Positions 3,708-23,733 of a stretch of DNA of 24,000 nucleotides are shown piece by piece; the first letter of the stretch is position 1, and the number at the start of each line of letters is the position of its first letter. Location: assembly GCA_035999915.1 (NCBI GenBank), contig DASYGJ010000358.1:6050-30049 (forward strand). The letters are read 5' to 3'. The notes under the pieces are model-generated. The model made no database searches. It saw nothing but the letters and a program-made list of their open reading frames with translations, and was not told where the DNA came from. The DNA comes from Leifsonia sp. Lineage in GTDB: Bacteria; Actinomycetota; Actinomycetes; Actinomycetales; Microbacteriaceae. The position numbers were made by a program, and so were the translations under genes.

Positions 3708-3739
3708 CAGGCTGTACCAGACTCGGGGCACAACAGCCG

Positions 3740-4126: not shown

Positions 4127-4143
4127 GCTCACGAGGAACGGCC

Positions 4144-5343: not shown

Positions 5344-5422
5344 GAACCCTCCTTAGGGCGGCAGGGCGGCGAAGCAGCGTCGAGAGCAGGGGTTTCGAGT
5401 GCGCTGACCGTAGTTTTGACGA

Positions 5423-5437
5423 GGTTCTGGAAGAACC
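5423..5437. promoter_or_regulatory. 15-bp palindrome GGTTCTggaAGAACC, candidate operator upstream of the esterase gene
   Basis: Perfect 6-bp arms with a 3-nt centre, about 80 nt upstream of the esterase start, inside a 427-bp gap that has no convincing ORF. Confidence 0.25.
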
Positions 5438-5770
5438 GCCTGAACGTGGCGGCGGCATCTGTACAGCTTCGATCGCATTCTGCCCGCAGCCCTGGTGGTT
5501 CGGCCTCAGGCGTCAGGTCTTGCATGACGTGTGCTAAGCCCTCAAGAGGAAGCCGATGCACGACGGAGGAGGGATTGTCCTCGCCGCGCGTCACGGATCG
5601 TGTGGCGGCTGTGAATGATTGGTGAGCACGTCTTCAGGTCCACAAGAAAAAACATGCACCGTTTGTTAGTCGATGGCTACGCAGAATCTCACGGTCACGC
5701 TTCGGTGCCTCGCCCGGGCTCTTGAGAGTTGAGTTCGACGGCTGCACCGTGAGTTGGTCGCGCCACAGGA

Positions 5771-7222: not shown

Positions 7223-7255
7223 GACGCAACCTGCTTCCTTGAAGGTGGTGAGGGG

Positions 7256-7273
7256 GAGTTGGATGAGTTGGAT
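7256..7273. repeat. Tandem 9-bp repeat (GAGTTGGAT)x2 in the SDR-permease intercistronic spacer
   Basis: Read directly at 7256-7264 and 7265-7273, between the SDR stop (7291) and the permease start (7222). Confidence 0.8.
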
Positions 7274-7290
7274 GTGGAGAACGCTGCGGC

Positions 7291-8070: not shown

Positions 8071-8076
8071 TCCTTC

Positions 8077-9105: not shown

Positions 9106-9120
9106 GGTGTCTTCTTTCTC

Positions 9121-9135
9121 AGTGGAGTGGAGTGG
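9121..9135. repeat. Tandem pentanucleotide (AGTGG)x3 in an intercistronic spacer
   Basis: Read directly, between the stop of the fusion gene (9136) and the start of the deiminase gene (9105). Confidence 0.8.
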
Positions 9136-12000
9136 TCAGAATCCGGTGCTGAGCACTCGATCGAGCGCGTCGACGAAGGCGTCGGCCGAAGCGATGGTGA
9201 CGACGAGGGGCGGCTTGATCTTGAGGACGTTCTGGTGGTCGCCGGTCGGTTGCATGATCACACCGAGCTCGAGCAGCCGCGCGCAGATGGCAGCGGTCTC
9301 GGCCGTGGCGGGTTCGAGCGTTTCGCGGTCGCGCACGAATTCCAGCCCGAGGTACAGGCCCGATCCGTGCACGGTTCCGACGATTTCGTGAACCTGCCCG
9401 AGCTGTTCGAGGCGTCGCTTCAGGTGCGCTCCGACGATGCGGGCGTTCTCTTGAAGACCCTCCTCCTGGATGACGTCGAGCACGGCCATGCCGATCACCG
9501 CGGAGACAGGTGAGCCGCCGGTCGAGGAGAAGAAGTATCCCTGCGAGCGGTAGCGGTCTGCGATCTCCCGACGCGTGATCACCGCACCGAGAGGGTGACC
9601 TCCGCCGATGGACTTGGCCACGGCGACGATGTCGGGCACCACACGTTGCTGTTCGAAGCCCCAGAACCAGTCGCCGAGCCTTCCGTAACCGACCTGCACC
9701 TCGTCGGCAATGGTTAGACCGCCGTGACGCCGGATCGCAGCGTAGACGGCAGAGAGGTAGTGGTCGGGTAGGGCCACGCCGCCGGCGTTTCCGAAGTAGG
9801 TCTCGCAGATCATGCCGGCCGGGGGACGTCCGGACGCCGCGAGGTCGTCGATGACGGCGACGGCTTCGGGCGCGTAGCGGTCGGAGTCAGGGCCGCGGTG
9901 GCGGCCGCGATACGGGTTCGCCGCGTCGACGGTGTGCACCCACCCGGGTCGGGTCGCCAGGGCGTTCGGGTTGTCGGCGACTGACGTCGACACAGCGTCG
10001 CTGGCGTAGGTCCATCCGTGGTAGGCCTCCCTCATCGCGACGATGTCGGGCCGACCTGTCGCGGCCATGGCGAGGCGGATTGCGAGGTCGGTCGCCTCGG
10101 ACCCGGAGTTGACGAAGAACACCGTGTTGAGTTCGTCGGGCAGGGTGGCCGCGATGCGCTCGGCATAGTCGGCGATCGCGCGGTAGTGGAAGCGCGAGTT
10201 GGTGTTCAGGAGGTGCATCTGGCGTGCGGCGGCGTCGACGACGTGCGGGTGCGCGTGACCGACGGAGGCAACGTTGTTGACCATGTCGAGGTAGACGCGA
10301 CCGTTCACGTCGATGAGGTATTCGCGCCAGCCGCGTTCTATGCGTGGCGGAGCGTCGTAGTAGTGCTCCTGGACTTCGGCGAGTACCCCGTGTCTGCGGG
10401 CCAGGACATCGTCGTCGACCGGCGCCGCGGCAGGTACGCCGATGGCTGCGCCCGGGTCCCCGGCGACCGTACGCCAGGCAGCCGCGAGTACCGGTGTGGT
10501 TCGAGCGGGCGGGGTGACGCCCGTCCGGGAACGCTGAACGACCAGTCGTGTCCGTGCGGGGAGCTCGTCCGAGACACCTGTGGCGCCAGAGATCGTCACT
10601 TGCTCATCGCCCGACGCCCACGATAGAACCCCATCGGTCTCCGTGACGGAGCCCGCGGACGCGTGCAGCCTGGTCGGTTCGGCCAGCCACAGGATCGCGC
10701 CGGTCGGGATCGTCTCCGTTGTGGACGGCAGCGGCTCGGTCGTCCCGGTCAGTCGGGCACGCCACGCTGGGACCGTGACGATCGCTGCGCCATCGTCGAG
10801 CGCAGCGAGAGCTGCAGCATCCAAGGTCGTCGCGTCGAGCCACGCCCCGGCGTCGTTGAGCGGTGATTCCGGGGATGCGTCGAGTTCCACGTGCGGGGAG
10901 AGCCGGGGCAGCAGGGCGTCGATCGCCCAGGGCCGCTGGGTCTCGACGGTTCGTCCCAGTGCGGTGCGGATCGCGGCGGTGATCACGGGCAGCGGGATCG
11001 ATACCGCTTGCTCGAGGATCCGGAGCTCGCGGTCGAGCGCGACGGTGGCGTAGGAATTGCCCTCGTCGAGACGCACTTGGGCGCGGCCGCTGAGAACCAG
11101 AACTGCCCCTCGCAGGACGACGAGGGGCCACAACGCCGTGATCTCCGCATCCGTGAGTTTCCGGACCCGATCGAATTCCTCGATGGCGGGCAGCGTGCTC
11201 TCAGGCCTCGCCCCGCTGTGATGCAGGATGGACGACACGGTGACCGCGAGCTCTCCCACACGCCACGAAGAGCAGACGTCGCCGAAGTCGATCACCGCGT
11301 CGGGCACAGCCGTTCCGGCCGCCCGCAGGACGTTGTCATCGGTGACGTCGAAATGCCCGAACTGAGTGGGGAGCTCGTCCTGCACGGGTCCCAGCGCAGC
11401 TCGGGCGGCGTCGACGGCGTGCAACACCGTCGCCCGTACCTCCGGGTCCGGTTCGCCGGGCAGCAGTGTGTCGACCACGCGCTCTGCGTGACGCAGATCC
11501 CACTGAAGGACGCGTGCGCCGGCCGGGTGGGAGAAATCGGCGAGTCCGAGGCTGATCGCGGCCGCCAGAGAGCCCATGCCCCTGACCGTGGCGGGGGAGA
11601 GGTATTCGGAGCCCATGAGTGTCGTGCCGGCGATGTTCTCGATGACCCGCGCATGCAGGTGGCCTTCGGAAGAACGCCACCAGGCGGACATCGCCCCGCG
11701 GGGACCCTCGACGAGACGGGGAATCCGCAGCTGGGGGTTTGCGTCGGCGACATGCGCAGCCGCGGCATCCTGCATCTCGATCTCGCTGCCGCTGAAGGCG
11801 GGGTTGCTCAGCTTGAGCACGCCCAACGGGCTGTGCGAGCCGGCCGGAAAGACGCGGAAGTTCTGATCTTGTTGACTGCCCAGCGGGTGAACATCGACCG
11901 CGACGCCGAACTCCGTGGCGAACAGCGTTGTCACCTCGTCGGCGGAGAGGGTGGGTGTGGGCAGATCCACGTGTGCGAAGTAGTCGAAGAATTCAGACAT
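9136..12000 (-). CDS. Fusion protein: APH/hydroxylysine-kinase-like phosphotransferase domain, ~200-aa central region, and class III PLP enzyme of the phospho-lyase (ETNPPL/PHYKPL-like) type
   Basis: 954 aa from ATG 12000 (MSEFFDYF). The track start at 12123 would overlap the upstream amidase.
- Kinase part: LGSQQDQNFRV, catalytic loop HFDVTDDN (aa 216-223), IDFGD (237-241).
- PLP part: NSGSEA (631-636), DEVQVGYGR (766-), PLP-Lys in VAVAKSIGGGHP (K796), and NVLKIKPP (924-931). This last motif is the one I recall as characteristic of AGXT2L-type phospho-lyases. Confidence 0.9.
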   Translation of the reverse strand: MSEFFDYFAHVDLPTPTLSADEVTTLFATEFGVAVDVHPLGSQQDQNFRVFPAGSHSPLGVLKLSNPAFSGSEIEMQDAAAAHVADANPQLRIPRLVEGPRGAMSAWWRSSEGHLHARVIENIAGTTLMGSEYLSPATVRGMGSLAAAISLGLADFSHPAGARVLQWDLRHAERVVDTLLPGEPDPEVRATVLHAVDAARAALGPVQDELPTQFGHFDVTDDNVLRAAGTAVPDAVIDFGDVCSSWRVGELAVTVSSILHHSGARPESTLPAIEEFDRVRKLTDAEITALWPLVVLRGAVLVLSGRAQVRLDEGNSYATVALDRELRILEQAVSIPLPVITAAIRTALGRTVETQRPWAIDALLPRLSPHVELDASPESPLNDAGAWLDATTLDAAALAALDDGAAIVTVPAWRARLTGTTEPLPSTTETIPTGAILWLAEPTRLHASAGSVTETDGVLSWASGDEQVTISGATGVSDELPARTRLVVQRSRTGVTPPARTTPVLAAAWRTVAGDPGAAIGVPAAAPVDDDVLARRHGVLAEVQEHYYDAPPRIERGWREYLIDVNGRVYLDMVNNVASVGHAHPHVVDAAARQMHLLNTNSRFHYRAIADYAERIAATLPDELNTVFFVNSGSEATDLAIRLAMAATGRPDIVAMREAYHGWTYASDAVSTSVADNPNALATRPGWVHTVDAANPYRGRHRGPDSDRYAPEAVAVIDDLAASGRPPAGMICETYFGNAGGVALPDHYLSAVYAAIRRHGGLTIADEVQVGYGRLGDWFWGFEQQRVVPDIVAVAKSIGGGHPLGAVITRREIADRYRSQGYFFSSTGGSPVSAVIGMAVLDVIQEEGLQENARIVGAHLKRRLEQLGQVHEIVGTVHGSGLYLGLEFVRDRETLEPATAETAAICARLLELGVIMQPTGDHQNVLKIKPPLVVTIASADAFVDALDRVLSTGF

Positions 12001-12023
12001 GGGGGTTCCCGGGTGATGGTGTG

Positions 12024-14060
12024 TCAGAGAGGAGAAAGGGGAGTGGTGGCGACGGCCCCGACAGTACCGCCAGCGGCATCCCGTGCGATGAGGACAACGA
12101 GCGGGCCGAAGGGAGCCATCCACGTGCTGACCGGCTCGAGGTAACTGCCCAGCGGCACCTCGGTGGAACCGGTGAGTCGGTTTCCGGTGAGCGTTGCGTC
12201 AACGCGAACGCCGTCGACGTATGCGCCGATGTCGATGGCCGGGCCGCCGGCGATCGTCGCAGAGAACTCCACGACGGTACGTGCACCCTGGCGCTCAACC
12301 GCGACGACGTCGATGTTGATGCGGAGGCCGGTGTCCGCCGGCGGCCGCGACTCCGCGAACACAGCCTCGTCGTCGAGGGTGGGAGTGCGCGTCGGCGTGG
12401 TGCGCCGGTTGCGCAGAGCGGCGATCGCCAAGCCCAGTCGGATCAGGCGAGTGTCGCTATAGGCTCGACTGGCCATCGTGAGTCCCACCGGGATCCCGGT
12501 GTCCTCCATGGTGCCCATCGGAACGACGACCGTGGGGATCCCGAGGTGACGCGGCACGAGGTTCCCGTTCGAAACCCAGACGCCGTTGCGCCACGCTCTC
12601 TCTGCCGAGGCGGGGTTGACATCCGCGTCCGCCGGTCCGACGTCGGACTGCGTGGGGAAGATGACGGCATCGAAACCGCGGTCGTCGAGCCATTTCTCGA
12701 AGTCTTCCCGGCGGGTGCGTTCCAGTCCGCGCAGCCCGTCTTCGAGGCTGCTGATGTTCCGCCAGTCGGGCTGCCATTCCCGGGCCCGCTCGACGTAGTC
12801 GCCGATGTCGTAGGAGATGTCGTAGTGCCGGAGGCCATACCGGTCGGGGAGCGCATCCGGCGGTTGCGGGAAGATTTTCGCGGCATCAGCGTCGGCGATG
12901 CTGTTCAGAGTCGGATCCCCGTTCTGGTGCAGGAAGGCATCCATGGCCCACACTGCGAGGTCGCCGACCTCGTCGTCGAGGAACTGACGGCTAACGAACC
13001 CGCGATCGAGGAAGTCGCGGTCTCCGGGGTGCAGCTTCTCGTAGCGGTCCACGACCGGGAAATCGGCCTCGACCACCTGGGCGCCCGCGGCCTCGAGGTC
13101 AGCGCGAAGGTCTCCCCAGAGGCGCAGGATGCTGTCACGGGTGACGATCGGGGACGCGTTATCCGGGTCCTGGTTGATGTAGATGCGGGGCACGGCAAGG
13201 CGAAGACCCTCGAGCGGCAGCGGTTCCAAGTCGGCGAATGACTCGGGGCGGACCTCCGACGGGCGCGGAAGTTGGATCCACGTTTGCATGCGCCAGAAGT
13301 CGCCGTTGCTGTCCGGATCGTCCGCGACGACCGCGTCCAGGACGTGGAGGAGATCCTTGATTGTGCGGGTGTGTGGGACGACGACGTCCATCGTCGGCAC
13401 GAGCGGCCAGTTCCCTCGCACTGAGATCACTCCGCGTGACGGGGTGTAGGCGACCAGCGCGTTGTGCGAGGCGGGAGCGCGACCGGACGACCAGGTCTCT
13501 TCGCCGAGTCCGAAGGCGGCGAAGCTCGCCGCGGTCGCCGACCCGGATCCATTGGAGGAGCCGGAGCCGAACGCCGAGGTGAGATAGTCACCGTTGTACG
13601 GCGACTCGGCTCGACCATAGAGACCCCGCTGCATGCCGCCGGCCGCCATCGGGGGCATGTTCGTCAGTCCCAGAAGGATCGCGCCCGCCTCCCGCAGTCG
13701 TGCCACCGCGAACGCGTCGTCGCCTGCGATCAGATCGGCGAACGCCGGCGACCCGGCGGCCACGGTCAGACCGGCGACGCGATAGCTGTCCTTTGCCGTG
13801 AAGGGGATGCCGTCGAGAGGACCGCGGCACTCGCCTCGGGCGCGGCGGACGTCAGAGTCACGAGCCTCGTCGAAGACCGAGGCGTTCAACACGGGCACTG
13901 CGTTGAGACGGATGCCGCTCCGGTCGTACGCCGCGATCCGATTCAGATACCGAGCAACCAGCTCCACGCTGGTCACCTCTCCCGCGTCGAGCGCGGCGCG
14001 CAGGCGGTCAATGTCGGCTTCGACGACACTGGGGGCTTCCGTAGACATGGCCGTAAACAT
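12024..14060 (-). CDS. Amidase (amidase-signature family), long form with a C-terminal ~130-aa extension
   Basis: 678 aa with PFTAKDSY (catalytic Lys) and GSGSSNGSGSATAAS...GRAPASHNALVAYTPSRG (variant of the GGSSGG signature). A beta-rich tail follows ...AIAALRNRR. The alternative start ATG 14048 (MSTEAPS) fits a leaderless transcript. Confidence 0.9.
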   Translation of the reverse strand: MFTAMSTEAPSVVEADIDRLRAALDAGEVTSVELVARYLNRIAAYDRSGIRLNAVPVLNASVFDEARDSDVRRARGECRGPLDGIPFTAKDSYRVAGLTVAAGSPAFADLIAGDDAFAVARLREAGAILLGLTNMPPMAAGGMQRGLYGRAESPYNGDYLTSAFGSGSSNGSGSATAASFAAFGLGEETWSSGRAPASHNALVAYTPSRGVISVRGNWPLVPTMDVVVPHTRTIKDLLHVLDAVVADDPDSNGDFWRMQTWIQLPRPSEVRPESFADLEPLPLEGLRLAVPRIYINQDPDNASPIVTRDSILRLWGDLRADLEAAGAQVVEADFPVVDRYEKLHPGDRDFLDRGFVSRQFLDDEVGDLAVWAMDAFLHQNGDPTLNSIADADAAKIFPQPPDALPDRYGLRHYDISYDIGDYVERAREWQPDWRNISSLEDGLRGLERTRREDFEKWLDDRGFDAVIFPTQSDVGPADADVNPASAERAWRNGVWVSNGNLVPRHLGIPTVVVPMGTMEDTGIPVGLTMASRAYSDTRLIRLGLAIAALRNRRTTPTRTPTLDDEAVFAESRPPADTGLRINIDVVAVERQGARTVVEFSATIAGGPAIDIGAYVDGVRVDATLTGNRLTGSTEVPLGSYLEPVSTWMAPFGPLVVLIARDAAGGTVGAVATTPLSPL

Positions 14061-14073
14061 ACACTGATTGTTT
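14055..14073. promoter_or_regulatory. AT-rich divergent start region with dyad AAACA-N9-TGTTT and two overlapping TANNNT -10-like hexamers
   Basis: Only 14 nt (26 nt if the amidase starts at 14048) separate the amidase and TetR start codons, and neither has an SD. TACACT (14060-14065, + strand) ends 9 nt before ATG 14075. TATGTT (14061-14056, - strand) ends 7 nt before ATG 14048. The 5-bp inverted arms at 14055-14059 and 14069-14073 span both hexamers. Confidence 0.3.
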
Positions 14074-14074
14074 T

Positions 14075-14785
14075 ATGGGCACCACAACTATTTCGAGACT
14101 CGCCGGCACGGACGGCTGGGACGGGTGCGTAAGCTCAGGAGGGACCTTTGGGAGGTACGTCATCGGTAGACCGTCCACGCCGATACTCAGCCGGGATCTC
14201 ATCGCGCGCACGGCGCTCGCGCTCGTCGATCGTCATGGGCCGGAAGGCGCGAGCATCCGCCGTGTCGCTGCGCGACTCGGGGTGAACCCCGCTTCGCTGT
14301 ACAACCACGTGCCGAATCGAGCCGCGATGGTCGAAGACGTGCGAGCGCTGGTCTCGGCGCGCATCGACTCGAGGCCATTGCGTGAACTCCCGTGGGAAGA
14401 TGCTCTCCGAGCCTGGGCCAGGTCGTACCGGCGAGCGTTCGCGAGGCACGCTCGGGCTGTGCCCCTGTTGATGACGGAGCGGATCTCGGCGCCCGTGCTG
14501 CTCGCCGAGTACGAAGACTTCGTGGTGGCTGCCGAGGCGGCCGGGTGGCCGCGTCGCGATGTCTTACCCCTGCTGACAGCGTTCGAGTCCTTCATCCTCG
14601 GCAGCGTCATGGACATGTCTGGTCCGACGGTCGTCTTCGATCCGACGGGGCAGGAGGACTCGTTCCCGCGATTTGCCGCGGCATTCGAGACGCTTGGCGA
14701 CGAGGATCCCGCCGACCCCGTCGCCACACGCGCCTTCGAACTGGGTCTCGACATGCTGATTGCCTCCGCCCGCCCTCGCGGTTGA
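14075..14785 (+). CDS. TetR family transcriptional regulator
   Basis: HTH ...LIARTALALVDRHGPEGASIRRVAARLGVNPASLYNHVPNRAAMVEDV... There is no in-frame alternative start downstream before the HTH. Divergent from the amidase operon. Confidence 0.85.
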   Translation: MGTTTISRLAGTDGWDGCVSSGGTFGRYVIGRPSTPILSRDLIARTALALVDRHGPEGASIRRVAARLGVNPASLYNHVPNRAAMVEDVRALVSARIDSRPLRELPWEDALRAWARSYRRAFARHARAVPLLMTERISAPVLLAEYEDFVVAAEAAGWPRRDVLPLLTAFESFILGSVMDMSGPTVVFDPTGQEDSFPRFAAAFETLGDEDPADPVATRAFELGLDMLIASARPRG

Positions 14786-14801
14786 CCAGGAAGGTCGAGA
14801 A

Positions 14802-15620
14802 GTGGACTCATCCGATATCCAATCTCCGCTGGCCACCGAAGCAGGTCGGCGGCTGATCTGCCTGACGCTCGCATGGGATCAGATCCCTGAGTCGATCTCG
14901 ATGGAGGGCGGTAGCGACGAGATCCTGCGCGAGCCCGTCTGTGCGATCCTCGTCGACACCGCGATCGGCTGGGTGCTGCTGGACACCGGCACGGACGCGC
15001 GGAGGTTTCGCGGTCCGAACCCCGACAGAGACCTCTACGCGCCGGCAGGCCTGCCCGAGTTCCTCACGGATGGCGACCCTCTCATCGATGCACTCGCCCA
15101 GCATGGGCTCGCACCGAGCGATCTCGTGCTCGCCGCGATCTCGCACCTGCACTTCGACCACTCCGGAGGCCTGCGGCACCTGGCTGAGGCGGGGGTCGAG
15201 GTCTGCGTCCAACGGCGAGAGCTCGACTTCGCCATGAACGCAGCGACGCGACACGATGCGTACCTCCGGGAGGACTACCAGGACCCGGCCATCAGGTGGC
15301 GCATCCTCGACGGCGACGAGGTCATCGCTCCGGGAATTGACGCCGTCTCGACACCAGGGCATACGCCGGGGCATATGTCGTACCGAGTGAGGATGGCCGA
15401 GTCGGGAACGTGGATTTTCGCTATGGATGCGATTGACTTGCAGAGGGGGATTGACCTCGACCGAGTGGTCGGGACACACGCTGTGCCAGCGGACGCGCCC
15501 CTCGTACGACACTCGCACAATCGTCTGGTCGCCCTTGCACGCGACGAGGGTGCTCGCCTGGTGGCCGGGCACTGCCCCGACACCTGGCCGGCATTGGCTG
15601 CCGAGGGGGTCATCGCCTGA
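14802..15620 (+). CDS. MBL-fold metallo-hydrolase, N-acyl-homoserine-lactonase-like (AiiA/AhlD type)
   Basis: ISHLHFDHSGG is nearly identical to the AiiA zinc motif HLHFDHAGG. Later STPGHTPGH and AGHCP. I prefer GTG 14802, preceded by AGGAAGG (14788-14794), over the track's TTG 14760, which overlaps the TetR 3' end. The start lies 16 nt after the TetR stop. Confidence 0.85.
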   Translation: MDSSDIQSPLATEAGRRLICLTLAWDQIPESISMEGGSDEILREPVCAILVDTAIGWVLLDTGTDARRFRGPNPDRDLYAPAGLPEFLTDGDPLIDALAQHGLAPSDLVLAAISHLHFDHSGGLRHLAEAGVEVCVQRRELDFAMNAATRHDAYLREDYQDPAIRWRILDGDEVIAPGIDAVSTPGHTPGHMSYRVRMAESGTWIFAMDAIDLQRGIDLDRVVGTHAVPADAPLVRHSHNRLVALARDEGARLVAGHCPDTWPALAAEGVIA

Positions 15621-15635
15621 CCCCGAAACGGGGTC
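15619..15635 (+). terminator. Putative stem-loop terminator GACCCCG-aaa-CGGGGTC
   Basis: Perfect 7-bp GC-rich stem overlapping the lactonase stop codon (TGA 15618-15620). There is no U-tract, as is common in high-GC actinobacteria. Confidence 0.45.
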
Positions 15636-15880
15636 GGCTCTCAATCCTCGCGCCGGGACGACGCCTGCGCTCGTATGCGATCAAGCCGACGGTGATGGTC
15701 CACGACTCTAATGCATAGACACGCAAGACGCGCGGACCGGCTGTGCGGGTGGGGGATGAGCGATCGAACCGAAGCGGCACCGCCCCGGTGGTCGCCCCGA
15801 CCGCGAGCAGGACGATGGCGCCAAGACGGCGGATCCATGAGGATTACATCAGCCAACTAGGCGCTTCTGGGCCCACCGCT

Positions 15881-15904
15881 AGAGTTCGAATCCCACGCCC
15901 TCCG
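15881..15904 (+). repeat. tRNA 3'-end-like fragment, left copy of a 24-nt direct repeat (att-like)
   Basis: AGAGTTCGAATCCCACGCCCTCCG. GTTCGAATC + CCCAC + GCCCTCC + G has the layout G53/T-loop, T-stem 3' strand, acceptor 3' strand, discriminator. Upstream there is no matching T-stem 5' strand (GTGGG expected, TAGAG found) and no D or anticodon arms, so it is a fragment rather than a gene. It matches 23710-23733 at 23 of 24 positions. Confidence 0.6.
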
Positions 15905-16171
15905 GCGGTACAAAATACCTGATCAGAGCAAATTTACCGTTGGCCTAAATGCCGATTTTGCCCCCAATCCGACGACATCCTCGTGAATTCACCTGGGGCC
16001 AAGCCTTGTGGGATAGCTGCAATTGGCACCCAAGTGGTGGGCAACTCTGCAATTCCTGGATACCACGGTGTCCCTGGCCGGATGGAAGTCACGCACCGGT
16101 CGACCGAGCGATTCGCATGGTCCAGAGGGTGCAGAATCGAATGGTCGCACCAGGCTGAATGGAGTCAATGA

Positions 16172-17140
16172 ATGGATGACGTCCGCGTCCCTGGGCTGGA
16201 ATCGGTCGCACCCGGTACATGGTCAGTGGGCATGCCCATGCCAGGTGGCCACATCCCATTCAGTGCCCTGTATCTCATCGAAGATGAGACGCGGGGTTTG
16301 CATGTGATCGATCCGGGCTGGGGGTCTGATGAGAACTGGCAGGTCCTCGGCGCGGCCCTCGCCCAGCTCGGTCGAAACGCAGGCGATGTGCGCACCATCA
16401 CGGTCACGCATCTTCATCAGGACCACCTGGGGATGGCCGACAGGTTGCGCGCCGCATCCGGCGCACCCGTCGTCATGCATCGTTTCGAGCAGCAGGCGAA
16501 GGATGGGATGGCCGGCGGAGTACCGGCCGAGGCGGCCGCGCACGAGATCGAAGGATGGGGTGTGCCGGGCGAGCGCCGGGGCGAACTCGACCTGCGGGCG
16601 ATCTCTTCGGCGGCGCCGCCGTCGGCGGATGCGGACCTGCTGGTCGACGACGGCGACCTGCTGCCGATCCCGGGACGCGAACTCGAAGTGCTGCTCACAC
16701 CAGGGCACACGCCCGGCCATATCTGTCTGCGCGATGCTCAGCACAGGCTGATCTTCACCGGCGACCACGTGCTGCCGACGATCTACTCCGGGCTCGGGCT
16801 CGGCGGTCGCACCGAAACCAACGCGATGGCCGACTACCTGGGGTCGCTCGCCCGGGTTGCGCTGTTCGACGATCACGAGGTGTGCCCAGGCCATGGCTAC
16901 CGGTTCTTCGGCCTGGCAGAGAGATGTCGTCAGATCTCCGAGCACCACCTCAGGCGCACGCGTGAGGTTCTCGCAGCGCTCGACGAGCGTCCGGATGCAT
17001 CGGTGTGGGGCATCGCGAGCGGCCTCACCTGGACGGCGGGTTGGGAGAAGCTGTCCGGGTTTTATCTGCTCTCGGCGCTCAGCCAGACGGCGATGCACCT
17101 GGATTTCGTCCGCTCGGGCGGGGCGCGGGCGTTCGTCTAG
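16172..17140 (+). CDS. MBL-fold metallo-hydrolase
   Basis: VTHLHQDHLG (HxHxDH), TPGHTPGH, CPGHGY; 322 aa. SD GGAG (16161-16164) lies 7 nt before the ATG. Confidence 0.85.
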   Translation: MDDVRVPGLESVAPGTWSVGMPMPGGHIPFSALYLIEDETRGLHVIDPGWGSDENWQVLGAALAQLGRNAGDVRTITVTHLHQDHLGMADRLRAASGAPVVMHRFEQQAKDGMAGGVPAEAAAHEIEGWGVPGERRGELDLRAISSAAPPSADADLLVDDGDLLPIPGRELEVLLTPGHTPGHICLRDAQHRLIFTGDHVLPTIYSGLGLGGRTETNAMADYLGSLARVALFDDHEVCPGHGYRFFGLAERCRQISEHHLRRTREVLAALDERPDASVWGIASGLTWTAGWEKLSGFYLLSALSQTAMHLDFVRSGGARAFV

Positions 17141-17535
17141 CCTGCGGTGACCGCCCAGACCGGTGCTGTCTCGTCGCGATCTCCGGTTCCGGTCGGCACG
17201 AAGGTGACGTGGACAGCGGCTCCGGTCAGGTCCGCGTCGGGGTCCGCGTCGAGCTCGCCCCACCACCAGGGGCCTTCGGCGAGCTGTACGACACCGACGA
17301 CGACCCGGTTCGGGGCGCCATCGCTGCCTCGGCCGTGGACGACCGACCAGCTGACGATCTCGCCGGTACCGGCGGCGGCCACATACTCGTAGCGCTCGGA
17401 CCAGAGCGCGACGTCGGTCTTCGAGTCGAGGAACTCACCGGTCGACGTGTCGCGGACGATGAGGAACTTTCCTTCCGCGGTGCCGTCGAAGAAGGCTGCG
17501 CTTGCGGCGTCGCGCCGCACGGGGAACAGTGGCAT
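17137..17535 (-). CDS. DUF35-type OB-fold protein lacking the zinc-ribbon cysteines
   Basis: Real start is ATG 17535 (MPLFPVRRDAASAAFFDG...), preceded by GGAGA. The 312-aa track ORF is an artefactual N-terminal extension through the upstream gene. The pattern FFDG..EG.F......G....GEIVSWSVVH...VVVGVVQLAEG...L...GAAVHVTF fits DUF35. The 132-aa protein contains no Cys at all. Confidence 0.8.
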   Translation of the reverse strand: MPLFPVRRDAASAAFFDGTAEGKFLIVRDTSTGEFLDSKTDVALWSERYEYVAAAGTGEIVSWSVVHGRGSDGAPNRVVVGVVQLAEGPWWWGELDADPDADLTGAAVHVTFVPTGTGDRDETAPVWAVTAG

Positions 17536-17543
17536 TGCGTCTC

Positions 17544-18704
17544 CTAGAGGGTGCCGAGGACGAGGGTCGAGTGGTGGTCGAGGACGCCGCCGTTGCCCGA
17601 GATGAGCACGCGGTCGTGGTTCTCGACCTGGCGTTCGCCGGCCTGACCCCGGGCTTGGATGATGCCCTCCGAGAGTGGGGTCATACCCCACATGTAGTAC
17701 GAGGAGAGCTGGCCGCCGCCCGTGTTGACTTTGAGCTTGCCGGCCGGGCCGAGCATCCCAGGTTCGGAGACGAAGGCGCCGCCTTCGCCCTTGGCGCAGA
17801 ACCCGTAGTCCTCGAGTGAGATGACGGCCGTATAGGTGTAGCAGTCGTAGAGTTCGACGACGTCGATCTCGTCGAGGGTCGTGTCCGCCATCCGGAGTGC
17901 GGCCGGCCCTGAACGTGCGGCGCCGGTGACCAGCCCGAAATCGTCGTTGCGGACGAACGATTTCCCGGGATGCGCCTGCGCCCAGCCGAGGACACCAACC
18001 GCAGGCTGAGCAAGCGCGGCAGCGCGCTCCGCGCTCGTAACTATTACGGCGATTCCGCCGTTGGAGACCAGGCAACAGTCGAACAGGTGGAACGGCTCAG
18101 CGATGTACCGCGACGCATGGTACTCGTCGAGGGTCAGGGGTTTCTGGAACTGGGCTCGCGGGTTCATCGTCGCCCAATCACGCTGGGCGACGGCGACGTG
18201 ACCGAGCTGGTCGCTCGTCGTGCCATACGTCTCCATGTGGCGGCGCGCGGCCAAAGCGTAGAACGTGTTGGCGCTGTACAGGGACGACGAGGCGTTGAGC
18301 CCCATGAAGCCCTTCGGCAGGGCAGTTGCTTCGCGGTAGGCATCGCCACCACCGCGGTTCTCGGTGAGCGGCGCATCCGCCCACACGCACGCAACCGTGT
18401 CGACCATGCCGCTCGCGACCGCCATTGCCGCGTACTGCACCATCTGGCCGGCGGTCGATCCGTAGCCCTGCATCTGGGTGAGGAGCTTCAGGTCGCGTAG
18501 GCCCAGTTCGCCCTGCGTGTTGAGTCCGACTTCGGTGCCGATCCCGCCGGATACCAGTAACCCATCGATGTCACCGAGCGCGAGTCCGGCGTCGGCAGCG
18601 GCGAGGGTCACGGCTTCGGCAGCGAACTGGGGCGCGGTGCGTCCGTAGACTTTGCCGAGCTCGGTGATTCCGAGACCGGCTATCGCGGCTGCTTTCTGTG
18701 CCAT
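17544..18704 (-). CDS. Thiolase-fold protein of the SCP-x/nsLTP (Ltp2-like) type, without the nucleophilic cysteine
   Basis: Start is ATG 18704 (MAQKAAAIAGLG), preceded by GGAAGGGA and lying 2 nt after the crotonase stop. Motifs QYAAMAVASGMVD, LFDCCLVSNGG, ELYDCYTYT, GFCAKGEGG and VNTGGGQLSSYYMWGMTPLSEGIIQARG are typical of DUF35-partnered nsLTP-type thiolase-fold proteins. The canonical Cys position reads GYGSTAG. Confidence 0.85.
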   Translation of the reverse strand: MAQKAAAIAGLGITELGKVYGRTAPQFAAEAVTLAAADAGLALGDIDGLLVSGGIGTEVGLNTQGELGLRDLKLLTQMQGYGSTAGQMVQYAAMAVASGMVDTVACVWADAPLTENRGGGDAYREATALPKGFMGLNASSSLYSANTFYALAARRHMETYGTTSDQLGHVAVAQRDWATMNPRAQFQKPLTLDEYHASRYIAEPFHLFDCCLVSNGGIAVIVTSAERAAALAQPAVGVLGWAQAHPGKSFVRNDDFGLVTGAARSGPAALRMADTTLDEIDVVELYDCYTYTAVISLEDYGFCAKGEGGAFVSEPGMLGPAGKLKVNTGGGQLSSYYMWGMTPLSEGIIQARGQAGERQVENHDRVLISGNGGVLDHHSTLVLGTL

Positions 18705-18706
18705 TG

Positions 18707-19534
18707 TCAGCGTCCCTTCCATTGCGGTGCCCGCTTCTCGGCGAACGCGACCAAGCCTTCGCGGGCGTCCTCGCTGCGCATCAGGTTCTTACCTTCCGCG
18801 GCGGTGCGCGCCCAGTCGCCGTCTTCGGCGGCGACATGCTGATCGGTGATGCCGCGAGCAATACGTTTGCTCGTCTGTACCGCGAGCGGCGCGTTCTGGC
18901 AGATCAGTTCGGCCAGTGCGAGGGCCTCGTCGAGCAGGTTCTCGAGCGGTACCACCCGGTTCACAAGGCCGAGCTCGGATGCACGCTGGGCGGGGATCGG
19001 CTGGCCGGTGAGGATCGCCTCCATCGCGACCTTCTGGGGGATCTGTCGGGGCAGTCGGAATGCCCCGCCGGCCCCGGCGAAAATGCCGCGCTTGACTTCG
19101 GGGAGACCGAACGACGCCGACTCGGCGGCCACAGCGAGGTCGCTGGCGAGCACCAATTCGGTGCCGCCTCCCAGCGCGAAGCCGTTGACGGCAGCGATCG
19201 TTGGCTTAGAGATCGCGTGGCTGACGTAGCCGGCGAAGCCCCAGCGGGCGAGGCGTTCGTCGCCGTTGCCGTTCAGCCTGCCGGCTGCGGCCTCCTTCAG
19301 ATCGGCGCCGGCGCAGAAGGCTTTGTCGCCCGAGCCGGTGATGATGACGACCCAGACCGAGGATTCGGCTTCGGCATAGTCGAGTGCTTCGCCGACGCCG
19401 ACCGTGAGGTCGAGGTTGACGGCGTTGCGCGCCTCCGGCCGGTTGAGGGTGATGAGGAGGACGTGTCCGCGTTGCTCGACGAGGACGGCGCCGTTCGCGT
19501 TCACCTCGATCGGGACAGCAGTGTCGATGGTCAT
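18707..19534 (-). CDS. Enoyl-CoA hydratase/isomerase (crotonase) family protein
   Basis: 275 aa: ...FCAGADLKE..., ALGGGTELVLASDL and FGLPEVKRGIFAGAGG. Both canonical catalytic Glu contexts are present. Confidence 0.9.
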   Translation of the reverse strand: MTIDTAVPIEVNANGAVLVEQRGHVLLITLNRPEARNAVNLDLTVGVGEALDYAEAESSVWVVIITGSGDKAFCAGADLKEAAAGRLNGNGDERLARWGFAGYVSHAISKPTIAAVNGFALGGGTELVLASDLAVAAESASFGLPEVKRGIFAGAGGAFRLPRQIPQKVAMEAILTGQPIPAQRASELGLVNRVVPLENLLDEALALAELICQNAPLAVQTSKRIARGITDQHVAAEDGDWARTAAEGKNLMRSEDAREGLVAFAEKRAPQWKGR

Positions 19535-19568
19535 CGGGAGGATGCCTTTCTCGTGTCTCTGATGATTC

Positions 19569-21983
19569 TTACGCGCGCTGCAGGTCGACGGCGGGGTGGA
19601 CCTGCAGGTCGCCGGTCTGAAGCAGTGCGTCGATCTGTTCGTCGGTGAGCCCCAGGGCGGAACGCGCGATCTCGCGGGTGTGCTCAGCCTGGCGGGGCGC
19701 TGGCTCGAGGAGCGGTGCCGGGATCGACTCGAAGATCGCCTCGCTGAGGTTGGTCATCATCGGCTCCGGCCGCAGCGGGTGCACGAGTGTGCCGAACACG
19801 CCTCGAGCTGCCAGGTGCTCGTCCGTGTCGAAGTCGACCGGTCGCATCATCGGTGCGGCTGGAACACCCGCCTCCTGCAGGAGGTCGGCTGCGGCCTTCG
19901 CGTCGCGCGCGGAGGTCCAGTCGCTGAGCGCGGCGCGTAATTCGCTGTCGAGGCCGAGCCTGCCTTCGGCTGTGGCAAGCCGGTCATCCTCCAGCCAGTC
20001 GGCGCGACCGATGGCGGCGGCCAGCGCACGGAACTGCTCATAGCCGGTCGGGTCGACGACGATCCACTGGTCATCACCGGCCGCGGGGAAGATGCCGCGC
20101 GGGGCATCCCCTCCCCGATGGTTGCCCTGGGCCTGGACAGACCCCGGCGCCAGCGACTCGAGTGCCAGCTGTTCCGACATCGCTGAGAAGATCGCGTCGA
20201 CCTGGGCGGTCGATACGCGCCCCCCAAAACCGGTGATCGATCGACGGATCAGGAGCGAGGTGACGGCGATCGCATTGAGCCTGCCGACGACGTGGTCGGG
20301 GTAGATGGTGATGGCGTCGCTGAACGACCCGTCGACATCCGGGTAGCTCCAGATGCGGCTAAGGCCGGCGCTGGCGCGAACAAGCGGTCCGTATCCCATC
20401 CGTCGGCTCCAGGCTCCGTGGTCGCCGAAGGCGCTGGACTCGGAGAGCACGATGCGTGGGTTTATCGCGGTCAGTTCGGCGTATCCGAAGCCGAGCGATT
20501 CGAGGGTGCCCGGTTTGAAGTTCGCGAGCAGGATATCCGAGGTTTCGATGAGCTGCGTGAAGAGGCGCTTGCCCTCCTCGCTTTTCAGGTTTAGGCCGAG
20601 GCTGCGCTTGTTGCGCTGGCCTCCGGCGAACCCGTCTGTGATCTCGGACCCGTCCATCGATCCGCGACTGCCGTCGGGGAAATCGGTGCTCTCGATCTTG
20701 ATGACTTCGGCCCCGTAGTCGGCGAACAGGCGGCCCAGTTCAGCGCCGACGACGATCACGCCGAGGTCCAGGACGCGCAGCCCGGAGAACGGTCGCTCAC
20801 CGGTGAGCCAGGTCGGAGCGGTGTGCTCTGCCCGGACGGGGAGGGGCTCCGTGGCACCTCCGACTGCGGGCGCGTTGGTGCGGATGCCGCTGCGCTCTCC
20901 GTCGAATTCGAAGATGCCGGAGGCGACGGTCACTGTGCGGCCGTCCGGCAGGGGGCTCTCGGTGAATGATCCTGCACCGGCGAAGGCGTCGGTCTGCAGC
21001 GCTTCAGTCAGGTCGGAGAGACCTGCCGTGGGGACACCGAACGACTGGCCCGCTTCGGTCGCTGCTTCTCGCGTATAGGGCGCGAGCATCCGGCCGATCA
21101 TCGGGTAGAGCGTTCGGATCGCGCCGAACCGCACTGCGATGTTGTTGTACTTGGGGTCTGCGAACTCGTCGGGTTCGCCCAACCAGCGAAACATTCCCTG
21201 CCACTGGCGAGGGCTGAGGATGCACAGGCGCACCCATCCGTCGGCGACCGGGAAGATCGGGTAGAGGTGGCGCGAGTCCGGGCGCCCGGGTGGCAGGTCT
21301 TTCAGGGACTCGCCGGCGCGCGCGCTGCCGCCGATTCCGAGAGCCGGGTCGAGAATCTGGATCAGGCCGTCGTTGACGGAGAAGTCGACGAACTCGCCGG
21401 TTCCGCGGCCGAGCGCCGACACGAACGCGAGTAGCACCGCCCAGGCGGCCTGAGCGGCGGCGGCCTCATACGCGAGGAACACCGGTGGAAGAAGGGGCTC
21501 GGTGATCTCCGGGAGTCCGGAGCGGCTGAGCACGGTACTCATCGCGAAATGAACGTCAGGGCTGCCGAGCCATCCGCTGCGCGTGCCGGTAAGTCCGAAC
21601 TCGGTCAACGATGCGACCACGAGGGAGGGGTGCTCGCGACGGATCGCGTCCAGGTCGAAATCCCATTCATGCTGCTCGAGGATCGTCGCATCAGTGAGCA
21701 GGATGTCGGCGTCTGCAAGCAGGAGCTCGAGGCGGGCTGCACCTTCGGGGGTCGACGGATGCGCGACCACGCTGGTCTTGTTGGCGTTGCGTGCTTCGAA
21801 GGTGAGGCTGGTGCCTTGGTGGAGCGTGCCTTCCTTGCGTGAGCGAGCCCCGCCTTCCGGTTCGATGCGGAGAACTTCTGCGCCGAGGTCGGCGAAGATG
21901 CGTCCGGTGCTCTGGAGCGGACCGTCGACGATGTCGAGGACGCGTACTCCGGCGAGCGGAAGAGTGTCAGGTCGTGCATTCAT
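19569..21983 (-). CDS. Tandem-duplicated family III (CaiB/BaiF/Frc-type) CoA-transferase, 804 aa
   Basis: Start is ATG 21983 (MNARPDTLPLAGVRVLD), preceded by GAGGGA. There are two copies of the family III N-terminal motif: LAGVRVLDIVDGPLQSTGRIFADLGAEVLRIEP (aa 10-42) and FSGLRVLDLGVIVVGAELGRLFADYGAEVIKIES (aa 399-432). Each is followed by a GyD..aqA.sGl-like segment and an R-x-G-x-G segment. Confidence 0.9.
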   Translation of the reverse strand: MNARPDTLPLAGVRVLDIVDGPLQSTGRIFADLGAEVLRIEPEGGARSRKEGTLHQGTSLTFEARNANKTSVVAHPSTPEGAARLELLLADADILLTDATILEQHEWDFDLDAIRREHPSLVVASLTEFGLTGTRSGWLGSPDVHFAMSTVLSRSGLPEITEPLLPPVFLAYEAAAAQAAWAVLLAFVSALGRGTGEFVDFSVNDGLIQILDPALGIGGSARAGESLKDLPPGRPDSRHLYPIFPVADGWVRLCILSPRQWQGMFRWLGEPDEFADPKYNNIAVRFGAIRTLYPMIGRMLAPYTREAATEAGQSFGVPTAGLSDLTEALQTDAFAGAGSFTESPLPDGRTVTVASGIFEFDGERSGIRTNAPAVGGATEPLPVRAEHTAPTWLTGERPFSGLRVLDLGVIVVGAELGRLFADYGAEVIKIESTDFPDGSRGSMDGSEITDGFAGGQRNKRSLGLNLKSEEGKRLFTQLIETSDILLANFKPGTLESLGFGYAELTAINPRIVLSESSAFGDHGAWSRRMGYGPLVRASAGLSRIWSYPDVDGSFSDAITIYPDHVVGRLNAIAVTSLLIRRSITGFGGRVSTAQVDAIFSAMSEQLALESLAPGSVQAQGNHRGGDAPRGIFPAAGDDQWIVVDPTGYEQFRALAAAIGRADWLEDDRLATAEGRLGLDSELRAALSDWTSARDAKAAADLLQEAGVPAAPMMRPVDFDTDEHLAARGVFGTLVHPLRPEPMMTNLSEAIFESIPAPLLEPAPRQAEHTREIARSALGLTDEQIDALLQTGDLQVHPAVDLQRA

Positions 21984-22040
21984 GGGGTACTCCCTCGTAC
22001 CGGTGGTGTTTGATGTCAGGATTTCACCGGTGTGATCGAA

Positions 22041-22059
22041 GCAAAAGCGTTCGTTTTGC
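22041..22059. promoter_or_regulatory. Dyad GCAAAA-N7-TTTTGC in the LysR/CoA-transferase divergent region, candidate regulator site
   Basis: Perfect 6-bp arms, 58 nt upstream of the CoA-transferase ATG and 115 nt upstream of the LysR ATG. It reads A-N11-T rather than the classical T-N11-A, so the assignment to LysR is weak. Confidence 0.3.
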
Positions 22060-22173
22060 ACGCTGAATCGCGCCCGCGATGGCGGATGCATCGGTCACAG
22101 AATGCACGGTGCGATTATCAATGCTTTGCCGAAACTGGTGGATGCCCGCTCGGATGGTTCCTAAAGTGGGTCC

Positions 22174-23082
22174 ATGGAACTAACCCAGCTCCGGGCGTTC
22201 GTCGCAGCGTCGCGCGAGCGCAATATCGGAAGAGCGGCCGCTTCGCTTCTGCTCACCCCGTCGCCTGTGAGCCGCACAATCCGCCAACTGGAAGGAGAGC
22301 TGGGCGGTGATTTGTTCGTGCGCGAGTATCACGACCTGCAACTGACTGCCTTGGGGGCGGCTCTTCTGCCAGCGGCGGTCGAGGCGCTGGCGCAGATCGC
22401 CGAAGTGTCCAGGGTCGCGGTGGGCGGCGAGCGGTCGCTCCGCATCGCGTCGACGCCGTGGGCACCGAGCCGCTACTTCGATCAATTGCGATTGCGCGCC
22501 GGGGAGGCGTTCGGTTCGAACGTTGCCGTGACAACCGAGATCTCCTCTGTCCTGCTGCACAGGCTTCGACACGGTGACCTGGACATCGCCGTCGTTCACC
22601 TACCGCTGGAGATTCCGGGCATCGCTTCAAGGCCGCTTGCGCGATACCAGTTCAGCGTTTTTGCGCATCCTGAGCATAAGTTTCGCAATCTCGAAAATGT
22701 GGGGTTATCGGACCTTGCCGGAAGCGAGATCATCATGCTCCCGTCCGAGTTGCAACCTGTCGCCATGACCGCTTTGAGAAACCGCTTGATCGAGGCCGGG
22801 ATTGAAAACGTGTCGACCATTGAGCTTCGTGACTGGGTCACCTTGCCTACACGGCTTCGGGAGCGCGACGCGATCACCCTTGGGTCGCTCTCGACGGACA
22901 CCCCCTTCACCCACCTCTTGTCGGCGAACCACCTGATTTCGGTTCCCCTTCGTCAGGGCGCGGCGGAGATGCAACTGGGAATCGCGTGGCGGGCGAACGA
23001 TCAGCTGAATGCCGAAGCTCTTGTCGAAATCGACAGGCGGATGACCCCTCGGGCGGCCCGTCCGCTGGACGTCCTCGACTAG
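22174..23082 (+). CDS. LysR family transcriptional regulator
   Basis: MELTQLRAFVAASRERNIGRAAASLLLTPSPVSRTIRQLEGELGGDLFVRE is the canonical LysR HTH. 302 aa; divergent from the CoA-transferase operon. Confidence 0.9.
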   Translation: MELTQLRAFVAASRERNIGRAAASLLLTPSPVSRTIRQLEGELGGDLFVREYHDLQLTALGAALLPAAVEALAQIAEVSRVAVGGERSLRIASTPWAPSRYFDQLRLRAGEAFGSNVAVTTEISSVLLHRLRHGDLDIAVVHLPLEIPGIASRPLARYQFSVFAHPEHKFRNLENVGLSDLAGSEIIMLPSELQPVAMTALRNRLIEAGIENVSTIELRDWVTLPTRLRERDAITLGSLSTDTPFTHLLSANHLISVPLRQGAAEMQLGIAWRANDQLNAEALVEIDRRMTPRAARPLDVLD

Positions 23083-23682: not shown

Positions 23683-23709
23683 GCGAACCACGCACGCGGG
23701 AGGGCGGAT

Positions 23710-23733
23710 AGAGTTCGAATCCCACGCGCTCCG
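23710..23733 (+). repeat. tRNA 3'-end-like fragment, right copy of the 24-nt direct repeat (att-like)
   Basis: AGAGTTCGAATCCCACGCGCTCCG, 23 of 24 identical to 15881-15904. As with the left copy, no upstream tRNA arms are present. Confidence 0.6.

Follow-up and report, generated by a model that had tools for sequence, protein, structure and literature searches.

What can a bacterium achieve with a coenzyme A (CoA) transferase, a hydratase and a thiolase-fold protein that has lost its nucleophile, when no dehydrogenase of the usual beta-oxidation kind is encoded beside them? The question is raised by a four-gene operon in Leifsonia sp. (assembly GCA_035999915.1, contig DASYGJ010000358.1, positions 6,050 to 30,049), within a stretch of 24,000 nucleotides that is called the window throughout. 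The operon encodes a fused family III CoA-transferase, a crotonase, a thiolase-fold protein and a small DUF35 protein, and it is faced by a divergent LysR-type regulator. No acyl-CoA dehydrogenase (ACAD) or hydroxyacyl-CoA dehydrogenase gene is found in the four-gene block or on the contig. We consider it likely that the operon is a catabolic module in which a carboxylic acid would pass through CoA transfer, hydration and retro-aldol cleavage.

In the proposed cycle, the module would shorten an imported carboxylic acid that carries, or is able to receive, a hydroxyl group on its beta-carbon. The fused CoA-transferase would shift CoA from a small acyl-CoA to the acid, at no cost in ATP, and hydration of the 2,3-double bond by the crotonase would yield a 3-hydroxyacyl-CoA. 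With a zinc-free DUF35 partner holding it, the thiolase-fold protein would then split the bond between C2 and C3 by retro-aldol chemistry, with Tyr292 as the base acting on the 3-hydroxyl and Cys294 and/or Tyr343 protonating the enolate. The predicted products are an aldehyde or ketone and acetyl- or propionyl-CoA, and the released acyl-CoA could prime the next CoA transfer, much as succinyl-CoA does in benzylsuccinate oxidation. Activation of the operon by the LysR regulator is probably triggered by the acid or an intermediate.

A thiolase fold without its nucleophile

The thiolase-fold protein carries the decisive step, and its active site is the strongest guide to the chemistry. Residue numbers follow the longer open reading frame (ORF) of 392 amino acids that starts at the ATG at 18722. 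In a structure-based alignment Gly88 occupies the position of the acyl-accepting Cys of the archaeal thiolase 7yvy, where Ltp2 and Sal also have Gly. Tyr292, Cys294 and Tyr343 align with Tyr294, His296 and Tyr344 of Ltp2 (Ltp2 numbers are chain residue counts in the structure alignment), and Tyr292-Asp-Cys294-Tyr295 spells YDCY, the same catalytic motif as in Sal of Comamonas testosteroni (CtSal). Gly88, the YDCY motif and Tyr343 are invariant in 12 of 12 homologues from eleven genera. Mutagenesis assigned the role of base to Tyr302 and that of acid to Cys304 in CtSal, and showed that Ltp2 of Thermomonospora curvata (TcLtp2) uses Tyr294 and Tyr344 for retro-aldol cleavage (PMC12329534). The window protein is accordingly predicted to hold both the Sal-type and the Ltp2-type catalytic sets; the general acid would be Cys294 and/or Tyr343, a choice that sequence alone cannot make. 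The first-pass annotation, a reading of the same DNA from its letters, had proposed that this protein lacks a nucleophilic Cys and belongs with the retro-aldolases, and the alignment against Ltp2, Sal and a true thiolase confirms the first point and supports the second.

Sequence relationships point the same way. Among solved structures, full-length matches were obtained to 4u4e (8.7e-63), to which no function is assigned, TcLtp2 (6ok1_A, 2.5e-56) and CtSal (9myr_A, 2e-41). All of them are outscored by IpfD, a protein missing from the comparators of the earlier annotation, which was retrieved by a search of plasmid records and is 50% identical over 383 residues (E 8e-106); on plasmid pIBU218 its gene lies between ring dioxygenase genes and an OB-fold gene. 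Since this closest studied relative performs such a step in ibuprofen breakdown, the cleavage mechanism would be a familiar one. The window protein falls under the cut-offs of all NCBIfam thiolase, lipid-transfer-protein and BbsB models. The same genome encodes another thiolase-fold paralogue (contig C256, 2005-3204), which shares 32% identity with the window protein.

The same features bear on whether the protein could instead be a true thiolase of the BbsAB kind, acting on a 3-oxoacyl-CoA in a beta-oxidation that starts with CoA transfer and borrows its hydroxyacyl-CoA dehydrogenase from elsewhere in the genome. The thiolase fold with its DUF35 partner, the BbsF-like half of the transferase and the presence of one FadB-like dehydrogenase in the genome would all fit such a route. 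However, classical thiolysis is not possible for this protein because Gly88, invariant in the family, replaces the nucleophilic Cys; it scores 84 bits on the BbsB model against a cut-off of 750; related loci have no conserved hydroxyacyl-CoA dehydrogenase neighbor; and the closest studied relatives, IpfD, Ltp2 and Sal, are aldolases. We regard a thiolase as very unlikely.

Gene neighborhoods of the related loci

A homologue search found relatives of the thiolase-fold protein in the genomes of at least 570 species; the best 80 of these relatives are 61-79% identical and come nearly all from Actinomycetota. We assembled 86 non-redundant loci from the best relatives and from loci fetched through a protein index, mapped a panel of reference proteins onto them and found further neighbors by unbiased clustering of adjacent ORFs. 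Across these loci the thiolase-fold/DUF35 pair is constant, with the DUF35 gene following the thiolase-fold gene in 84 of 86, and the partners vary. A fused CoA-transferase lies within a few kb in 51 loci, a crotonase orthologue is present in 50, and a LysR gene stands near the thiolase-fold gene, beside the fused CoA-transferase, in 44. Less frequent are a heteromeric ACAD pair resembling PimCD or IpdE2 (24 loci), a major facilitator superfamily (MFS) transporter of the aromatic-acid type (14 loci; its closest family is the aromatic-acid/H+ symporters) and a split MaoC hydratase (8 loci). The order seen in the window, namely transferase, crotonase and cleavage pair with neither ACAD nor MaoC, recurs in 24 of the 86 loci, so it is not a chance arrangement; it is found in Agromyces, Arthrobacter, Paenarthrobacter, Nakamurella, Frondihabitans, Nonomuraea, Streptomyces, Frankia and Actinoplanes.

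Two regularities in these neighborhoods speak to the mechanism. In most related loci the gene directly upstream encodes a hydratase, either a crotonase or a split MaoC pair that is unrelated to it, and this argues for hydration as the step that supplies the cleavage. In addition, enzymes that handle carbonyl compounds are repeatedly found close by. An aldehyde dehydrogenase gene occurs near the pair in 9 loci, and in three Streptomyces loci it lies directly downstream in the same direction, with the benzaldehyde dehydrogenase MdlD as its best model; Zn-alcohol dehydrogenase and Baeyer-Villiger monooxygenase genes are near the pair in 7 and 6 loci. Activation is interchangeable too, as AMP-forming ligases replace the transferase in 12 loci. 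On plasmid pR8L1 of Rhodococcus sp. 008 a cytochrome P450, a ferredoxin and a reductase are encoded directly upstream of the pair (L091:5303-9600), a place taken in five Saccharopolyspora loci by a phosphotriesterase-like hydrolase (e.g., L042:8847-11561); both may represent other means of supplying the 3-hydroxyacyl-CoA or of handling the product. In our reading, the conserved pair would be fed by any enzyme that installs a 3-hydroxyl and would often be followed by enzymes acting on aldehydes or ketones. A variable supply of the hydroxyl group together with carbonyl-handling neighbors is what a retro-aldolase predicts, and would be hard to reconcile with a thiolase. The annotations of the neighbors (aldehyde dehydrogenases, monooxygenases, transporters) point to different carbonyl products from locus to locus, and none of these genes is present in the window.

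In a tree of the thiolase-fold proteins the window sequence groups with Agromyces, and loci of the ACAD and MaoC types are nested among those of the crotonase type and interleaved with them. Two Amycolatopsis loci (A. thermophila, L006, and A. bartoniae, L011; about 600-16100 in each) have two CoA-transferase systems side by side. The first consists of a TetR regulator, a fused transferase and a split MaoC hydratase; in the second, a LysR regulator, a fused transferase, an alpha/beta-hydrolase, a crotonase and the cleavage pair are encoded ahead of an ADP-forming acyl-CoA synthetase and an MFS transporter.

A DUF35 partner without a zinc ribbon

Every solved DUF35 protein binds zinc, through four Cys or, in Shy, through three Cys and a His (PMC12329534). 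The DUF35 protein of the window has no Cys at all and hence no zinc ribbon. Its AlphaFold model, built on 59 orthologues, has a mean predicted local distance difference test (pLDDT) score of 93.4. A fold search with this model returned the DUF35 domain of ChsH2 as the best match (6ok1_D/B; template modeling (TM) score 0.73-0.76 over 127-129 alignment columns), along with BbsA, the archaeal DUF35 protein and the DUF35 protein Shy (9myr_B, TM 0.75); the top matches are all DUF35 partners and span 112-136 alignment columns. The confident model and these matches indicate that the fold is kept without the metal site, and they agree with the earlier assignment of a DUF35 OB-fold gene, to which the Pfam match also attests (Table 1).

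Loss of the ribbon is widespread among the relatives. The ribbons were counted in 88 loci, a set in which two duplicate places are added to the 86 non-redundant loci: of these partners, 54 are without any CxxC and 34 keep a four-Cys or Cys3His-like ribbon. Within this one orthologous group, three states can be told apart over loci L008-L087 (e.g., L063:11193-11573, L033:11175-11570 and L019:11186-11578). An intact CxxC...CxxC ribbon occurs in Nonomuraea, Streptomyces and Frankia; a CPDGH...CxxC form resembles the Cys3His finger that has been reported as unique to Shy; and Cys-free proteins are found in Microbacteriaceae, Mycolicibacterium, Rhodococcus, Amycolatopsis, Nocardia and Saccharopolyspora. 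On the thiolase-fold tree, zinc-free partners turn up at no fewer than three separate points, and IpfE is likewise without a four-Cys ribbon.

DUF35 proteins are also known as scaffolds, which raises the question of whether the pair might form rather than break carbon-carbon bonds, or hold a complex together, in a biosynthetic operon comparable to the archaeal thiolase/3-hydroxy-3-methylglutaryl-CoA (HMG-CoA) synthase/DUF35 complex, PhlABC or MucABC. Complexes of this kind do appear in the fold search, at TM 0.6-0.68, and PhlC is among the weak sequence matches of the thiolase-fold protein. Against this, the operon lacks a partner such as HMG-CoA synthase or a PhlA-like protein, the module is accessory and patchily distributed, and the associated genes (LysR, transporters, CoA-transferase, hydratase, ACAD, aldehyde dehydrogenase and monooxygenase) form a catabolic context. 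A biosynthetic role is therefore highly improbable, and retro-aldol cleavage is retained as the preferred function.

Activation and hydration

The CoA-transferase consists of two unequal halves. The C-terminal half finds its best solved match in a benzylsuccinate CoA-transferase subunit (9fn0_B, 8.8e-45) and keeps the catalytic Asp563 (YPDHVVG), a residue shared by all of 35 fused homologues. Divergence is far greater in the N-terminal half, with Rv3272 as its best solved match (1e-15) and 9fn0_A slightly lower (7e-15). Here Tyr172 stands at the position of the Rv3272 Asp that is altered in the D-to-A variant 5yiy, and none of the 35 fused homologues has an Asp there. Retention of Asp563 and replacement of the other Asp by Tyr172 imply one active site per transferase chain. 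The enzyme is thus predicted to be a fused, heterodimer-like transferase, built like BbsE-BbsF in a single chain. Its description as a tandem family III CoA-transferase holds, with the refinement that the catalytic Asp is found only in the C-terminal half.

The crotonase has both catalytic Glu residues in their expected contexts, as first described: Glu126 in GGGTEL and Glu146 in GLPEV. It passes the generic NCBIfam model PRK08252 (285 bits, cut-off 282), and its best solved match is 3r0o (1.5e-91). The structural-genomics entries 3r0o, 3r9s and 3r9t bear the labels 'carnitinyl-CoA dehydratase' or 'EchA1_1', and these labels are not transferable.

The highest score of the crotonase, 301 bits, is to the EchA19 model, which recalls the degradation of steroids. 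Might the operon be a side-chain module for steroids or bile acids, with an orthologue of Sal (or the M. smegmatis msSal) or of Ltp2 as its aldolase? Ltp2 and Sal are the best solved relatives of known function, the YDCY motif is that of Sal, and a stand-alone DUF35 protein, msShy, is known beside a Sal-like aldolase in M. smegmatis (PMC11333196). Nevertheless, the EchA19 score lies under the cut-off of 400, and the thiolase-fold protein lies under that of every lipid-transfer-protein model (PRK07855, 268 bits against 469; PRK06158, 304 against 421). Members of its own family, judged by the best 80, are at least 61% identical and IpfD is 50% identical, with Ltp2 and Sal far weaker matches, and there are no steroid genes near the operon. 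With only seven ACAD-like genes and a single hydroxyacyl-CoA dehydrogenase gene, the 3.4-Mb genome is also far too poorly equipped for steroid catabolism. On account of the sub-threshold family scores and this small beta-oxidation gene set, a steroid function was rejected; it is the least probable of the alternatives considered.

Dehydrogenases and the weight of the evidence

The module was originally described as dehydrogenase-free. This is correct for the window locus and for the 23 others that share its gene order, but it does not extend to the family: an ACAD pair in 24 of the 86 loci means that lack of a dehydrogenase is not a family trait. A dehydrogenase thus adjoins the cluster in relatives, but not in the window genome. 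The assembly is that of a high-GC, soil-type actinobacterium, comprises 3.37 Mb in 376 contigs and is about 90% complete. It contains seven ACAD-like genes and one true FadB-like 3-hydroxyacyl-CoA dehydrogenase gene, none of them on the contig of the operon. The nearest short-chain dehydrogenase/reductase (SDR) gene (7291-8070) is 9 kb distant and is part of an unrelated operon.

These counts matter for a variant of the proposal in which the mechanism is the same and the substrate is a saturated acid, with an ACAD encoded elsewhere or on unassembled DNA making the 2-enoyl-CoA. In Mycolicibacterium, Amycolatopsis, Nocardia and others, PimCD/IpdE2-like pairs are encoded next to orthologues of the thiolase-fold/DUF35 pair, loci of the ACAD type are nested among those of the window type on the tree, and a 90% complete assembly leaves room for a missing gene. 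On the other hand, an orthologue of this ACAD pair was not found in the assembly, where the best match is 26% identical and the seven ACAD-like genes all lie off the contig; and the ACAD-less order, found in 24 loci of diverse genera, is a stable arrangement. We judge the variant unlikely, although it is the most credible of the alternatives.

Several observations count against an unsaturated acid processed by CoA transfer, hydration and retro-aldol cleavage in the window. Besides the ACAD pairs of the relatives, SDR genes occur in some related loci, and a needed dehydrogenase could lie on unassembled DNA. The characterized DUF35 partners all bind zinc (PMC12329534), whereas that of the window is predicted to be zinc-free. 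No transporter gene is present within the window operon. The assignment of IpfDE comes from genetics and metabolite analysis, not from a purified enzyme (PMC9195938), and IpfD has YDAF rather than YDCY, so that the nearest relative differs from the window protein in its catalytic set. Finally, all functional statements made here derive from sequence, structure models and gene context. Even so, Gly88, the Sal- and Ltp2-type residues, the 50% identity to IpfD, the hydratase upstream and the carbonyl-handling neighbors together favor the proposed sequence of reactions, which is also the chemistry suggested at the outset.

Operon structure and flanking features

The features of the locus are summarized in Table 1. 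The gene calls give intergenic gaps of 34, 2 and 8 nt between transferase, crotonase, thiolase-fold and DUF35 genes, in agreement with the tight minus-strand packing (2-34 nt) and the divergent LysR gene noted before. A convergent gene for a hydrolase of the metallo-beta-lactamase (MBL) fold overlaps the stop end of the DUF35 gene by 4 nt and closes the 3' end, so the operon has exactly four genes. The nearest NCBIfam model of this hydrolase is Strvi_7410 (158 bits, under cut-off), and a homologue that is 47% identical adjoins the module in a Salinibacterium locus (L021). The hydrolase may be a passenger, or it may serve in the same pathway as a lactonase or thioesterase.

Within the control region, the dyad GCAAAA-N7-TTTTGC at 22041-22059 is a candidate LysR site. 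A scan of the region with the sigma-70 consensus found no promoter-like site, this consensus being uninformative for a high-GC actinobacterium. The other genes of the window (amidase, agmatine-type, TetR and lactonase-like) are unrelated to the operon. Members of the Microbacteriaceae, among them Agromyces and Herbiconiux, provide the nearest named homologues.

Table 1. Operon, regulator and flanking features, with positions in the window
Feature	Position	Strand	Remarks
25-nt direct repeat, left copy	15880..15904	+	tRNA T-arm-like
MBL-fold hydrolase	16172..17140	+	PF00753 E 1.4e-22; convergent
Stand-alone DUF35 protein, 132 aa	17137..17535	-	PF01796 E 7.5e-10, exceeds Pfam cut-off
Thiolase-fold (SCP-x type) protein, 386 aa	17544..18704	-	PF22691 E 2.9e-41; predicted retro-aldolase
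Crotonase-type enoyl-CoA hydratase, 275 aa	18707..19534	-	PF00378 E 4.6e-63
Fused tandem family III CoA-transferase, 804 aa	19569..21983	-	Two PF02515 stretches, E 5.8e-134
Divergent control region, 190 nt	21984..22173	.	Small dyads between LysR gene and operon
LysR-type regulator	22174..23082	+	PF00126 E 2.7e-16, PF03466 E 2.3e-18; divergent from operon
25-nt direct repeat, right copy	23709..23733	+	24/25 identical to left copy

Origin of the module

Of 200 further genomes drawn from the family, just 2 have an orthologue, and the two genomes of the same genus have none. The two 25-nt repeats bracket the MBL gene, the operon and the LysR gene, and this repeat has only these two copies in the whole assembly. 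No tRNA or integrase gene was found in the window. An empty site was sought in both same-genus genomes, and the DNA that flanks the repeat-bounded block is absent from them. The module is best seen as accessory and was probably acquired, and it has a patchy distribution in the bacterial family.

Substrate and significance

We favor as substrate an aromatic or ring-bearing (alicyclic) 2-enoic acid, for example one of the cinnamate type, because of the transporter type, the MdlD-like dehydrogenase and the ring-tolerant ACAD and MaoC enzymes of sister loci and because of the BbsF-like half of the transferase. The simplest guess is a cinnamate-type acid that would yield a benzaldehyde and acetyl-CoA. 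Another possible substrate is a 3-substituted 2-enoic acid, whose hydrated form would be a tertiary alcohol that cannot be oxidised.

Abscisic acid was tried as a candidate. The chemistry fits (PMC7996341, PMC9599779): its side chain loses C2 units to give dehydrovomifoliol and then 'rhodococcal acid', by enzymes not identified in those studies (PMC9599779, PMC13619911). The homologue searches gave no support. A search seeded with the Rhodococcus member of the group listed no close orthologue (at least 72% identity) from R. globerulus, R. qingshengii or strain P1Y, all reported to degrade abscisic acid; among plasmids, R. qingshengii has only a 60%-identical homologue in a different context; and the Novosphingobium transcriptome note names no genes of the thiolase-fold/DUF35 type.

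A (1-hydroxycycloalkyl)acetyl-CoA lyase activity exists in cyclohexylacetate-degrading Arthrobacter. One could extend the proposal and regard the thiolase-fold/DUF35 family as the lyase that bacteria use in general for acids resistant to oxidation at the hydrated beta-carbon, one that would supply the missing gene both for the cycloalkylacetate lyase and for removal of C2 units from abscisic acid. In that case the window operon would be an ATP-free cycle primed by its own acetyl-CoA product. As a whole, and for these two genes in particular, we hold this extension to be a long shot.

Thiolase-fold aldolases have so far been characterized for steroid side chains and genetically implicated for ibuprofen. 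The orthologous group of the window protein is large and appears to combine the same cleavage pair with interchangeable parts: a CoA-transferase or a ligase for activation, and a crotonase, MaoC pair, P450 or dioxygenase for the hydroxyl group. Such modularity would be a useful rule for predicting the catabolic routes of acids with blocked or bulky beta-carbons, among them plant phenylpropanoids, terpenoid acids, naphthenic acids and drugs. The hybrid catalytic set, the zinc-less DUF35 protein with a full modeled fold and the single-chain transferase with one dead half offer testable enzymology. If the acyl-CoA product is truly reused, the shortening of acids without ATP would be of interest for biocatalysis.

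Comparison with known systems

The mechanism proposed here is known from IpfDE, Ltp2 and Sal. What appears to be undescribed is the combination of a fused, single-site transferase with a crotonase in a closed four-gene operon, as well as the putative hybrid of Sal and Ltp2 catalytic sets and the predicted zinc-free partner. A full-text literature search for a characterized orthologous cluster gave only Ltp2, Sal, msSal and IpfDE, and none of this work treats the orthologous group of the window.

The bbsEF, bbsH and bbsAB genes of Thauera and Geobacter resemble the operon in their transferase, whose subunits match its halves, and in the presence of a crotonase and a thiolase-fold/DUF35 pair. 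The benzylsuccinate pathway begins with a CoA transfer whose donor is the acyl-CoA that its last step sets free. BbsB, however, is a true thiolase with its nucleophilic Cys in place, the dehydrogenases BbsG and BbsCD are needed, and the transferase consists of two separate subunits whereas that of the window is fused. DddD, a CoA-transferase/lyase for dimethylsulfoniopropionate (DMSP), is a single chain with CaiB-type family III domains at 1-416 and 439-821, encoded in a LysR-controlled operon (PMC7174347). By its description it is comparable to the window enzyme, a single-chain two-domain family III transferase under LysR, but DddD is itself a lyase, has no hydratase or aldolase partners and is marine proteobacterial.

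Sal-Shy of C. testosteroni (9MYR, PMC12329534) shares with the window pair the YDCY motif, in which Tyr is the base and Cys the acid, and the Gly at the nucleophile position, and its products are an aldehyde and acetyl-CoA. msSal/msShy of M. smegmatis (PMC11333196) adds a stand-alone DUF35 protein and an aldehyde enzyme alongside, as in some sister loci. In contrast to the window protein, Sal has Gln where the second Tyr is kept, the zinc finger of Shy is of the Cys3His type, the substrates are bile acids or sterols, and the match is weaker than that to Ltp2 or IpfD.

Ltp2-ChsH2, known from T. curvata (6OK1) and, in M. tuberculosis, from the igr operon, is likewise a thiolase fold without nucleophile, and its two catalytic Tyr residues have counterparts in Tyr292 and Tyr343. 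The gene logic of igr is seen in those relatives of the window locus that have, in addition, a heteromeric ACAD pair or a split MaoC hydratase. Ltp2 differs in its YDHF motif and its steroid substrate, and its DUF35 domain is fused to a hydratase and carries a four-Cys zinc site, whereas that of the window stands alone and has no Cys.

The closest parallel is IpfD-IpfE, found in Sphingomonas Ibu-2 and on plasmid pIBU218 of Rhizorhabdus wittichii MPO218; ipfDE is described as the retro-aldolase that converts ibuprofen-CoA dihydrodiol to propionyl-CoA and 4-isobutylcatechol, and an ipfD transposon mutant does not grow on ibuprofen (PMC9195938). IpfD has Gly at the nucleophile position and keeps the Tyr that matches Tyr344 of Ltp2, and a 132-aa DUF35 protein without a four-Cys ribbon is encoded directly downstream. 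Both systems would act on a non-steroid substrate, cleaving a 3-hydroxyacyl-CoA into a carbonyl compound and a short acyl-CoA, as is predicted for the window. They differ in the YDAF motif of IpfD and in the proteobacterial, plasmid-borne nature of the ipf genes. The steps before cleavage also differ: the ipf pathway obtains the 3-hydroxyl from the ring dioxygenase IpfAB and CoA from the ATP-dependent ligase IpfF, whereas the window operon would rely on its crotonase and its CoA-transferase.

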